Positions 48,329 through 51,595 of a stretch of DNA of 64,000 nt are shown one piece after another (positions within the stretch are counted from its first letter, which is position 1; each line of letters begins with the position of its first letter). The position numbers were made by a program, and so were the translations under genes. The notes beneath the pieces were generated by a model. The model saw only the letters and a list, made by a program, of their open reading frames with translations. It was not told the origin of the DNA and made no database searches. This DNA comes from Waddliaceae bacterium (GTDB lineage Bacteria > Chlamydiota > Chlamydiia > Chlamydiales > SLFE01): NCBI GenBank assembly GCA_963771045.1, contig CAVYRW010000004.1:1024001-1088000 (forward strand). Reading direction: 5' to 3'.

Positions 48329-51300
48329 ATGGACTCGGGAAAAAATATCGCCTCAACTTCAGAAAAGCTTATTGCCAAAATAATCAAATACAATGAAACA
48401 GGCACAAACTGTGTCTGGCTCAATCCACAGGATTTTGATCGTTTAAACGCCCCTTTTGTCAGAATTGCCGGCAGAGTCTATAAAGCAGTGCGGGCAGAGT
48501 GGCTTAAAGAGTCCGGCACAGCAGGCCTGTCCCATAAGCAGCAAACAGACCTCAAAGAGGCGGTGAATCATAAAAATCTTGTTGTCATTTCCCCTTTCCG
48601 TCCATCGGAAACCAATCACAGAATTATGAATTCACTGACTTTTGCTTTAGATCTTCCTGAAGGCAAGAAAGAGCTTGAAGAGAGTGTGATTATCGATTCG
48701 GGCGAGCTGACCGCATTCATTCATAAAATCTTTGATGGCCACTATTTGAAGTTAGATCAAAGCCTGCGGATATGTTTCAAAAACCGAATTTTATCATTAT
48801 CGCTAGAAAGAGGAGAGGGGATAAAAACTCCCCAAAGCCACAACTTCTTTAATAAGATTGCTGAAAGAACAAAACTTTATTTTAAGACTCCTGATGACTT
48901 GCAAATTTTTCTGATCGCAAGGCAGCCGGTAAACGACAGGTTGACATTCACGTTCAATGTTTCAATCAAAAAAGAGGAACAGAAGAAAAGGACGGATTTT
49001 GATGCAAAAATGAACCGGGAACAATTGCTTTTTCGGGAAATCGCAAAAAAATATCATCAAATACAATCCTATAAGGAAGTTCCTCACCCCCTTCTCTTTT
49101 CTGAAGAAAATCTTAAAAAAACGATTCTCGGCAAATTGCAAAATCAATACATCAATGCGAAAACGACCAGGATTTTCTATCATGACGGGTGTCAAATCAA
49201 GGTTGTTTTAAAAGAAGTTTCAAAAGGGGAGGAAAAATTTTCCGGAATTGTACGCATTGGCGGCAATGCCGCACTGTGTCATAAAGCCTTTTACCTGTCT
49301 CCCAAATCAAATATTCAGCTCGAATCCTCGCAATTGCTGGAAATAGTTAAAGGAAACCCCTTAATAGCTGCGGCAGTTAAGATTAAACTGGATGAAGTTT
49401 TGACTCCTCTGAGAAGACGCAGACGCAAGTGGATATCGGTTTCTGCAATCAAAAGGGAAATCATGAAAAAGCTAGACAGGTTTGTCCTGGGAACCCGATT
49501 CCATATTTTTGTCGATGAATTTGAATATGCTGTTGAAATCGACAGTGTCAAGCCCTTGCCTCGCAGTCAAGGAGGTAAAAGCCACTGGAAAATAGATAAA
49601 GAAACAAAGATAGAACTCTTGCCGCATCCTGTTCTTAAAAAAACACTTGTATTTGACGATGCCGCTCGAAGCCTTAAAAAAATCACGTTAAAAATTGAAT
49701 CCGAGATAAAAGACATGGATCCGGACGAGCTGCGAGAGGCCATTTTGCATGATATTCCCAAGAAAATTTGTACGGGGGAATCTTTTACGATCAGTTTGAG
49801 AGGGGGCAAACGAGTCTGTATTGTCGTTGACTCTATGGCGTTCTATGATTCTCAGTTGAAGCAAAATTACCTCGGTTTTGTCGATAAGGAGAAAACAAAA
49901 CTAAAACTTGTCGGGAAAGAGGGGGCCATAAAGAAAAGAGATTCAGCGAAAATTCTTGATCCTGTTATAGCTTTAAAAAAAATAGATTTACTCGGTCCCA
50001 CCGAAGATCAAATCAAGCTGGCAAAAAGCCTTCTTCTTTATAACCGGACCGATCTGAAAGACCTCATGAAACAGTTTGGTATTAAACCTGCAAAAGGGGT
50101 GATGCTTTATGGTCCGCCGGGAACAGGGAAAACATCGTTTGCTGAAAAATTTGCCAAAGTAGTCCTTGATGTTCCAATGAATAGAATAACCTTTATATCT
50201 GCTGATGATTTAAAAGATTCTCTCCTTGGGGGAACCGAAAAGGCGATTCGCGGCTTATTCAAAAAACCGAAGGAAGCAGGTAAAAACGGGCCGCTTCATG
50301 TTGTTGTGATTGATGAGGCCGATTCTATCGGAGGAACAGAAGGGATCACTCAAAACTTCGATCATAACTTTATCAATGCACTGAAATCACAGCTAAGCGA
50401 AATTCAGGAGATGAATGTCATCGTCTTTTTGATTACTAATTATCCGGAACGTTTCGATAAGGCTTTGATTAGAGACGGACGGATAGATCAAAAAGTCATG
50501 TTCGGCTTGCCAAATAGAAAAGGAAGAAAAGCAATTTTTGATCATTATGTCCGCGCTTTAGTGAAAAATAATCGTCTTGCAGAGGACGTCGATCTGGGCC
50601 GTTTGGCATCCATGACAAACGGCATAGCCGGTTCGGGGATTGAAAATATCGTCCGAACGGCATCTCTTAACAGTGTATTAGATGATAAGACAAAAGTGAC
50701 AATGGCTGACTTTCTGCTTGCATTTGAAGAAGTTGTCAACCCGTTTAAGCATGGCCGGGTAATTCCAAATGATTCCGATAAAATTCAAAAATTAAGCCCT
50801 CGTGCTGCGCTGGAAGAACTTGGGATTGCTTTGCCAAAAGAAACTTTCCATCAAATCGAGCCAATTGTAGGCGCTTATAGAACAGGCCCCAAATTCGGCT
50901 TGAAGCTGCCCAGAGGAATAATTGTCAATGGTCTGCCGGGTACCGGAAAGTCAACTCTTGCAAGAGCTGTCATTCAAATGCTTGGAGTTCAGAGCCACCA
51001 TTTAAAAATCCTCGATGCCGGCAGTATTGTCAATGAATTCAGAGCTAATAGAAGGAAAAATTTCAAAGATTTTTTCATCGCGGCAAAACAAGCGGGAGAA
51101 TCTCCCGATGACGCCGATCAACTTTATGTGCTGATGATTGAAAATATTGAACTTCTGGATCAGGGTATCCTTAGCCAGTTGCTAGAAGAAGTAGATCAAC
51201 TCAAACATCTCGACAACTTGTTTTTAATCGCCACAGCAAACAGAGGCGGAGTCTTGACAACATATTCCGCCATGCAGAAACTGATCCAGCCCGGAAGATT

Positions 51301-51595
51301 CCCGACAGAAATAAAGTTGGGCCTTCCCGAATTTTCCCAGCGCATGGAACTCCTCAAATTGTTGACAAAACAGATGCAAGAAAAGGGGGGATTAGACGAT
51401 GGTGTCAGTTTAAACACTCTTGCCAGTCTTACAGATGGCTTTACTATCTCGCAAATCAAAAGCTTTGTGCGGGATGCCTGGTCCTATTCTTTGGTCAGAG
51501 CTAAGGAAGGTACGGGAAAAATCATCATAGATGATTTTTATGAAGCTTTTAAATACCAATCAGGGGAGTTGAAGTTAAAATCGATGTACGGGTAA
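48329..51595 (+). CDS. NSF/Sec18-like double-AAA ATPase with extended N-terminal region
   Basis: [11 protein letters not shown] N-domain. D1: [33 protein letters not shown]. D2: [14 protein letters not shown], QPGRF. Confidence 0.8.
   Translation: [1088 protein letters not shown]

Follow-up and report, generated by a model that had tools for sequence, protein, structure and literature searches.

What does an ATPase of the vesicle-fusion lineage do in a chlamydial genome? The question is raised by P0001, a protein of 1088 amino acids encoded at positions 48329–51595 (+) of a 64,000-nucleotide stretch (hereafter the window) of contig CAVYRW010000004.1 from a Waddliaceae bacterium (genome G000). 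A first-pass annotation of the window had read this gene as a host-derived NSF/Sec18 ATPase that may remodel host SNARE or membrane complexes; the C-terminal tail, a paralog of P0001 and a 2022 paper on related proteins (PMC9546365) were not covered there. Judged by its sequence, P0001 belongs to the Type 2 NSF-like family of Mimiviridae and some chlamydiae described in that paper; the family is already known and P0001 is a new member, with the layout Nn-Nc1-Nc2-Nc3-Nc4-D1-D1'-tail. We propose, at roughly even chances of being right, that P0001 would be an NSF-derived ring ATPase which is delivered into the host cell and attaches there to the 20S proteasome through its tails.

Domain architecture and ancestry

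The P0001 open reading frame (ORF) is intact and single, and all of its features lie on the + strand. Residues 1–11 (48329–48361) form an N-terminal extension modelled with low confidence (predicted local distance difference test score, pLDDT, <50) that, unlike those of many relatives, carries no motif resembling a nuclear localisation signal (NLS). This is followed by an Nn subdomain of NSF type (residues 12–93; 48362–48607), which aligned to NSF-N at 96.5% in hhalign, and by four Nc units. Unit 1 (residues 95–200; 48611–48928) and unit 4 (residues 444–533; 49658–49927) aligned to NSF-N at 97.7% and 93.9%, respectively. Unit 2 (residues 203–341; 48935–49351), recognised by profile comparison and in the model, contains a low-confidence insertion at about residues 216–247, and unit 3 (residues 343–442; 49355–49654) bears a basic run (residues 362–367; 49412–49429) in an exposed loop.

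The N domain (Nn+Nc) aligned to NSF-N at 99.6% in hhalign. Residues 19–161 scored 37 bits on a hidden Markov model (HMM) of NSF-N built from 42 eukaryotic NSF N domains and did not match a CDC48-N HMM built from 46 CDC48 N domains. In profile comparison the four Nc units are mutually homologous at 92–97% probability; units 1–4 matched NSF Nc at 98, 52, 80 and 94%, and CDC48-N at lower values of 50, 13, 38 and 1%. The full model (24 sequences; mean pLDDT 78.8, predicted template modelling score 0.40) shows a barrel at residues 14–90 and then four units of identical strand-helix-strand order. Folded alone, units 2–4 reached a pLDDT of 82.7, and the top structural match of this model among 48,161 chains was NSF-N (1qdn; Z 10.9, root-mean-square deviation 2.6, 97 residues aligned), ahead of Sec18-N (1cr5, Z 9.7), Pex1-N (Z 9.4) and Ufd1 (Z 8.6). 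Foldseek returned the same fold group with SPATA5 first and weak E-values. The first-pass annotation had counted about three extra Nc-like units and expected an NSF-N fold here, and both the count and the fold agree with these results. All seven window peptides quoted there are present (residues 26–36, 122–155, 257–267, 369–379, 463–473, 582–602 and 651–667), and the NSF strings given alongside them match the deposited NSF chain, a few residues apart.

Profiles and the model revealed the Nc repeats, whereas a BLAST self-comparison did not. Pfam and NCBIfam gave nothing above cut-off in the N-region, Pfam reporting two AAA domains and nothing in residues 1–545; an Atlas search with residues 200–540 produced leads below 0.9 only, and word-based searches with the N-region returned only 2 and 3 proteins. 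Among relatives, the Waddlia-type members P0010, P0012 and P0014 repeat the Nc2–4 block, giving about seven Nc units.

The first AAA domain, D1 (residues 545–805; 49961–50743), is placed in the NSF-D1 lineage by its motifs and by phylogeny. Its Walker A (residues 595–602), Walker B (D662-E663), sensor (N704) and arginines (R715/R718) are intact, and its pore position 632, equivalent to Y294 of NSF, is Leu. The second AAA domain (residues 820–1078; 50786–51562) has an intact Walker A (residues 868–875), with E938-N939 instead of D-E in the Walker B, rightly called degenerate in the first-pass annotation, and Gln at the first arginine position; it is predicted to bind but not hydrolyse ATP. It scored 136 bits on an HMM of family D1s built from 36 single-domain members, against 102 bits on NSF-D1 and 7 bits on NSF-D2, and in the tree described below it groups with the D1s of its own chlamydial family (98/86). 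By HMM scores, motifs and phylogeny, the second domain arose by duplication of D1 and is not an NSF-type D2.

Ancestry was assessed in a mixture-model tree of AAA domains with 79 rows. Nine family rows that were near-duplicates or very long, 33/51 NSFs and most CDC48 rows were omitted from it, and the NSFs retained were the closest in sequence to one member of the family. The tree separates NSF D1 plus the family from CDC48 D1/D2 at 100/100. Support for a group of the 18 NSFs is 100/100, whereas the family as one side receives only 80/51, and it adjoins the sampled eukaryotic NSFs rather than nesting within them; in a 206-row FastTree, NSF was placed among family rows on weak forks. N and D1 are thus of NSF lineage, although no eukaryotic donor can be named. 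The earlier proposal of NSF-like ancestry holds on both the D1 grouping and the NSF-type N-region, and D1 did not group with bacterial or archaeal CDC48-like ATPases. Of "host-derived", the NSF lineage stands, but the family branches next to the sampled eukaryotic NSFs and not within them, and the nearest relatives that it has outside the chlamydiae are proteins of giant viruses. Viral rows join Waddlia-type proteins at 97/94 within chlamydial diversity in the 79-row tree, which suggests, short of proof, a transfer of the family to viruses.

Two candidate interpretations were set aside. The best tree has two independent origins of the second domain, which we do not claim, as a single origin for all degenerate second domains was not rejected (approximately unbiased test, p 0.25). 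VAT/p97 came first in whole-protein PDB and Foldseek searches because the scores of two domains add up, and an identity with these proteins was discarded on per-domain scores and trees.

SNARE binding, the C-terminal tail and host location

Would such a protein act on SNARE complexes? One reading, in which an NSF-like motor is secreted and takes apart or blocks SNARE complexes of the host at the inclusion, is suggested by the NSF lineage of N and D1, by the annotation of the Waddlia member as "putative vesicle-fusing ATPase", and by SNARE, Rab and SM genes that are reported also in giant viruses (PMC9546365). NSF is described as binding SNAP via R10, R67, K68 and K104 (PMC11532144). With NSF residue numbering taken from the PDB alignment, the R67 position is Arg in 42/42 NSFs and in 2/40 family rows, and is Gln72 in P0001; K68 and K104 are likewise not kept, being replaced by T73 and, in a gapped loop of Nc unit 1, by about E111, whereas R10 is not alignable. 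NSF is also reported to grip its substrate by Y294, with Y294L causing 88% less disassembly while ATPase activity and the hexamer are unaffected (PMC6160233). This pore residue is aromatic in 51/51 NSFs and in 125/136 family D1s, including that of the paralog, and is Leu in 9/136. The N-region of P0001 is strongly and unusually basic (net +27) and could contact acidic SNAP/SNARE surfaces in a different manner, but it is net acidic in most chlamydial members. We found no SNAP family match in G000 or in 5/5 other carriers, which is weak evidence, since a missing SNAP gene is expected if the host supplies SNAP. Given the loss of the SNAP-binding residues, the absence of an NSF-type D2, Leu632 in the pore, and a tail and NLS motifs that this activity would leave unexplained, we consider SNARE disassembly or blocking quite unlikely. 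The SNARE and membrane remodelling proposed in the first-pass annotation is therefore not supported, whereas a host-directed role is likely.

The C-terminal tail (51563–51592), identified from the sequence and from family conservation, ends M1086-Y1087-G1088, followed by the stop codon, and so carries an HbYX motif (hydrophobic residue, Tyr, any residue). Tails were counted in 124 of 150 listed family representatives, namely those with an AAA domain and 5–45 residues after it. They comprise 77 HbYX ends, 23 Hb-F-X, 3 x-Y-X, 9 Y-x-X and 12 others, so that an Hb-Y/F-X end is found in 100/124 members compared with 52/1931 long ORFs of G000. An M-Y-X end occurs in only two of these 1931 ORFs, P0001 and its paralog. 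HbYX ends are present in 0/51 NSFs and 15/51 CDC48s, and in 6/6 family members on viral contigs (L201–L206). Where D has been duplicated, 11/18 two-domain members and the sole three-domain member still end in Hb-Y/F-X.

Such an ending could be structural, the tail packing on the next subunit of the ring while remodelling by the ATPase is directed at a different host target, such as a nuclear complex. The near-constant spacing of the tail, 10–18 residues past the last AAA domain, would suit this, and nine viral SpoVK/CbbX-like AAA proteins that are not NSF-related end M-Y-X as well (L091, L098, L100, L102, L104, L105, L108, L113 and L116), a likeness that shared structural use could explain; alternatively, several viral AAA lineages may share one host docking site. 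However, NSF D1, the parent domain, works without the tail (0/51), the last residues of P0001 are of low confidence in the monomer model, and the strict penultimate placement would suggest a free carboxylate read by a pocket. A structural tail is therefore rather improbable.

HbYX tails are reported to open the gate of the 20S proteasome (PMC8907193). According to the same source, the penultimate residue may be Tyr or Phe for human 20S, with a preference for Ser or Thr two positions before it, and the sequence rules are looser for multivalent rings. The alternation of Tyr and Phe at this position in the family fits the 20S pockets, since human 20S is described as taking either. Where Tyr is the antepenultimate residue (19 rows), Ser/Thr precedes it in 13 and Phe/Tyr follows it in 10, and P0011 terminates in the same five residues as the optimised activator peptide reported in PMC8907193. 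PF00227 (proteasome/HslV) was not found in G000 nor in 26/26 other carriers (68–99% complete), whereas 10/14 control genomes matched; with no such gene found in the 27 carriers, a 20S partner would be the host's. One further member, P0019 (1065 aa), has a basic N-terminus and, in place of the HbYX tail, a Lon protease domain (residues 863–1055) with Ser and Lys motifs. A single sequence, this fusion is what one might expect if the unfoldase otherwise works with a borrowed protease.

The tail might instead be read by other host proteins. The last hydrophobic residue and penultimate Tyr of p97 are described as binding PUB and PUL domains (PMC5389986), and a secreted ATPase ending alike could capture the host cofactors that carry them (PNGase, PLAA/Ufd3, UBXD1, HOIP), diverting ubiquitin-linked processing. 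P0001 resembles p97 in ending Hb-Y-G after a two-ring N-D1-D2 layout, and whole-model fold matches are to p97/CDC48. On the other hand, 23/124 members have a penultimate Phe and the last residue varies freely, 114/150 listed rows are single-ring, and the Lon fusion points to protease feeding. We regard mimicry of p97 as unlikely.

Signs of a host location come mainly from the N-terminal extensions of the family, which have a median length of 32 aa and are rich in Ser, Pro and Thr. NLS-like motifs occur there in 49/120 members, compared with a background mean of 8.4 and 9.2 in shuffles, and bipartite NLS-like motifs in 31/120 (background 2.5, shuffles 3.1); the search patterns were simple ones, and rows that are related do not count as independent. 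Among 29 rows from chlamydial genomes, 8 have an NLS-like motif and 6 a bipartite one, and viral members begin with similar basic motifs. In P0001 itself, the six basic residues at 362–367 lie in a low-confidence exposed loop and represent a possible internal NLS, the run being shorter in the ortholog. G000 encodes a type III export gate protein (PF00771, 743 bits), the sole type III component searched.

Docking on the host 20S would proceed as follows. The AAA ATPase, derived from NSF and equipped with an enlarged N-region and an HbYX tail, would be exported to the host cell, assemble into a hexameric ring and insert its tails into the alpha-pockets of the 20S proteasome, while the additional Nc units would choose substrates or adaptors in place of SNAP. 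Typical single-ring members may unfold host proteins and thread them via D1 into the 20S without ubiquitin, often in the nucleus. For P0001, the Leu pore of D1 and the degenerate second domain make a weak grip likely, and this protein may function more by opening the gate, by competing with host caps or by working together with its single-ring paralog. A predicted complex of residues 1040–1088 with two archaeal 20S alpha subunits scored 0.40 and one control 0.42, which counts neither for nor against docking.

Several observations weigh against proteasome docking. An HbYX motif by itself proves nothing: such ends are reported for 0.72% of proteins in bacteria without proteasomes (PMC11475706), and the p97 tail that binds PUB and PUL domains is of like kind (PMC5389986). 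The Hb-Y/F-X end is absent from 24/124 members, and the residue commonest third from the end is Met (68/124), not the Tyr that human 20S is described as preferring in single peptides. Neither P0001, with its 11-residue extension, nor the paralog has an N-terminal NLS, and a mimivirus NSF-like protein is reported in viral factories (PMC9546365), which are cytoplasmic. The Leu pore would argue against strong unfolding by P0001, the Lon fusion is one sequence, and most of the 150 listed rows lack taxonomy. We consider it possible, at somewhat less than even chances, that environmental chlamydiae and giant viruses share an NSF-rebuilt proteasome cap for ubiquitin-independent degradation of host proteins via the host 20S, and that a passage from chlamydiae to Mimiviridae may have occurred. 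The details of this rebuilding are held with the same reserve: the SNAP site and D2 would have been dropped, Nc multiplied into a substrate-selection array, the HbYX tail and often an NLS added, and the product delivered to the host.

Family distribution and genomic setting

Relatives of the N-region were found in at least 11/400 genomes of the order and relatives of the full profile in at least 26/400 genomes of the phylum; both counts are floors, as 2–3 candidates were scored per genome and one genome was left out. The family was found in 0/29 genomes (1.0–1.2 Mb) of one chlamydial family. Among the best 80 loci listed from all prokaryote genomes, which are mostly archaeal CDC48, two are family members and both are Chlamydiales. 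A profile of units 2–4 matched 162 clusters at 50% identity; in the 150 listed, the number of AAA domains is one in 114, two in 23, three in a single case (P0191) and zero in 12. The D1 Walker B Glu is kept in 131/136 family D1s. The best named non-chlamydial match is a mimivirus "putative AAA family ATPase" (P0027) of the same layout; family profiles match this protein and the viral contigs, and the N-region query recovered the Waddlia protein. Two oddities were also seen, an intein-type Hint domain within D1 of P0254 and a family match with four internal stops, probably a broken copy, at G074:C1:2665234–2666010.

The paralog lies 22 kb downstream of the P0001 gene, beyond the window (G000:C4:1094678–1097206; L001:8678–11206 (+)). 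It has 843 aa, one AAA domain, an aromatic pore residue and an M-Y-V end, and is 27% identical to P0001. Both forms also occur in G087 and G109, and G126 has the single-ring form and a cut-off second copy. Upstream of the paralog are two abutting ORFs of 590 and 310 aa without Pfam match (L001:5750–8393 (-)); G087 has one ORF of 1159 aa at this place (L024:7562–11038 (+)), and the two ORFs of G000 may be a split gene.

The P0001 gene sits on a 2.29-Mb contig of a 2.57-Mb genome that is 90.6% complete. A divergent glycosyltransferase and kdsB lie on its 5' side and a tRNA/rRNA uracil-5 methyltransferase gene on its 3' side, a setting on so long a contig that makes contamination unlikely. The genome's order is shared with Waddlia and other Chlamydiales. 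The glycosyltransferase-kdsB pair is also upstream in G087 and G109, and the methyltransferase gene is downstream in G087; on neighbour comparison, the Waddlia gene does not have this neighbourhood. The gene has a GC content of 41.3% compared with 44.6% for the genome, the 16th percentile among long ORFs. No sigma-70-like promoter was found in 48100–48400, no plasmid matched P0001 at E 1e-60, and no sequencing run was listed for its gene.

This setting bears on one further possibility, that P0001 works inside the bacterium as a chaperone or unfoldase that was domesticated following transfer and serves a chlamydial protease or membrane process. Its position among housekeeping genes, conserved in G087 and G109, its large size and the lack of an NLS would agree with such a role, as would purifying selection: the ratio of nonsynonymous to synonymous rates against the G087 ortholog, from one pair by simple counting, is 0.23 overall (D1 0.20, D2 0.26, Nc3 0.52). 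Against it stand the lack of any proteasome/HslV match in the 27 carriers, NLS-like motifs in chlamydial members, the fact that giant viruses have this family and its tail as well, the patchy presence (26/400 genomes), and the failure to find a family-wide partner gene among immediate neighbours (32 loci, 63 proteins). An internal role is, in our estimate, very unlikely.

Elsewhere in the window, an insertion-sequence cluster at 39333–43259 contains IS200/IS605 TnpA and TnpB, a DDE transposase and a 435-aa ORF (no Pfam match at 1e-8). At 56037–60894, a SET-domain gene (+, 207 aa) overlaps the end of a minus-strand run, which comprises a gene for a protein of beta-lactamase fold, an ORF of 410 aa with no Pfam match and a gene for a methionyl-tRNA-synthetase-like protein with ~120 additional N-terminal residues.

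Comparison with known systems

The closest described relatives are the Type 2 NSF-like proteins (Neveu et al, 2022, PMC9546365; Waddlia WP_013181706.1), with which P0001 shares the long conserved N-region, the NSF-like D1 and, as in some chlamydial members, a second D domain. P0001 differs from the relatives described there in coming from another chlamydial family, in having a paralog and in its Leu pore. That paper names Waddlia, Estrella, Criblamydia and two more chlamydiae, files the family under vesicle trafficking and leaves its function open; its main text and supplement text do not mention the proteasome or HbYX, although the supplement text lacks "NSF" too and the figures may hold more. 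The main text of an HbYX survey (PMC11475706; its database was not queried) mentions neither NSF nor chlamydia. In the literature searched, at title and abstract level and with subscription papers outside its scope, we found no description of the repeat architecture, the D1-derived D2, the SNAP-site loss, the tail or the NLS motifs, and no comparable effector.

With NSF/Sec18 (PDB 3J94, 6MDM, 9CRU, 1QDN and 1CR5), P0001 has in common the Nn and Nc fold and sequence, the D1 lineage, intact catalytic residues in D1 and a degenerate second ring. It departs from them in having four Nc units rather than one, SNAP-binding residues that are not kept, a D2 that is a copy of D1, an HbYX tail, and a family position outside the sampled NSF clade. 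The p97/Cdc48/VAT proteins share with P0001 the N-D1-D2 layout, the N fold and the Hb-Y-X tail, and are its best whole-protein PDB and Foldseek matches; nevertheless, both AAA domains of P0001 fall outside the CDC48 D1 and D2 clades, the CDC48-N HMM does not match, and TIGR01243 gives 181 bits against a cut-off of 803.

The HbYX proteasome ATPases (archaeal PAN, Rpt subunits and actinobacterial Mpa/ARC) are described as likewise ending in an AAA domain and a short Hb-Y-X tail (PMC8907193, PMC11475706), and most family members are single-ring. P0001 differs in its NSF-type N domains and in coming from a genome, G000, in which no proteasome gene was found. The N-regions of PAN, Rpt and Mpa consist of coiled-coil and OB domains. 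NCBIfam PAN models score 186–189 bits on P0001 against cut-offs of 500, and P0001 lies far below the cut-offs of NF003069, TIGR01242 and TIGR03689, and so is not of the PAN/Rpt/Mpa sequence family. If its tail does dock on the 20S, an intracellular bacterium and a virus would each supply the host proteasome with an ATP-driven cap and could select degradation targets without ubiquitin. Should the proteasome reading fail, one Nn, four or more Nc units, a D1-made D2 and the SNAP-site loss would still correct the "vesicle-fusing ATPase" annotation; should it hold, a motor of NSF lineage would have been turned into a PAN-like machine.

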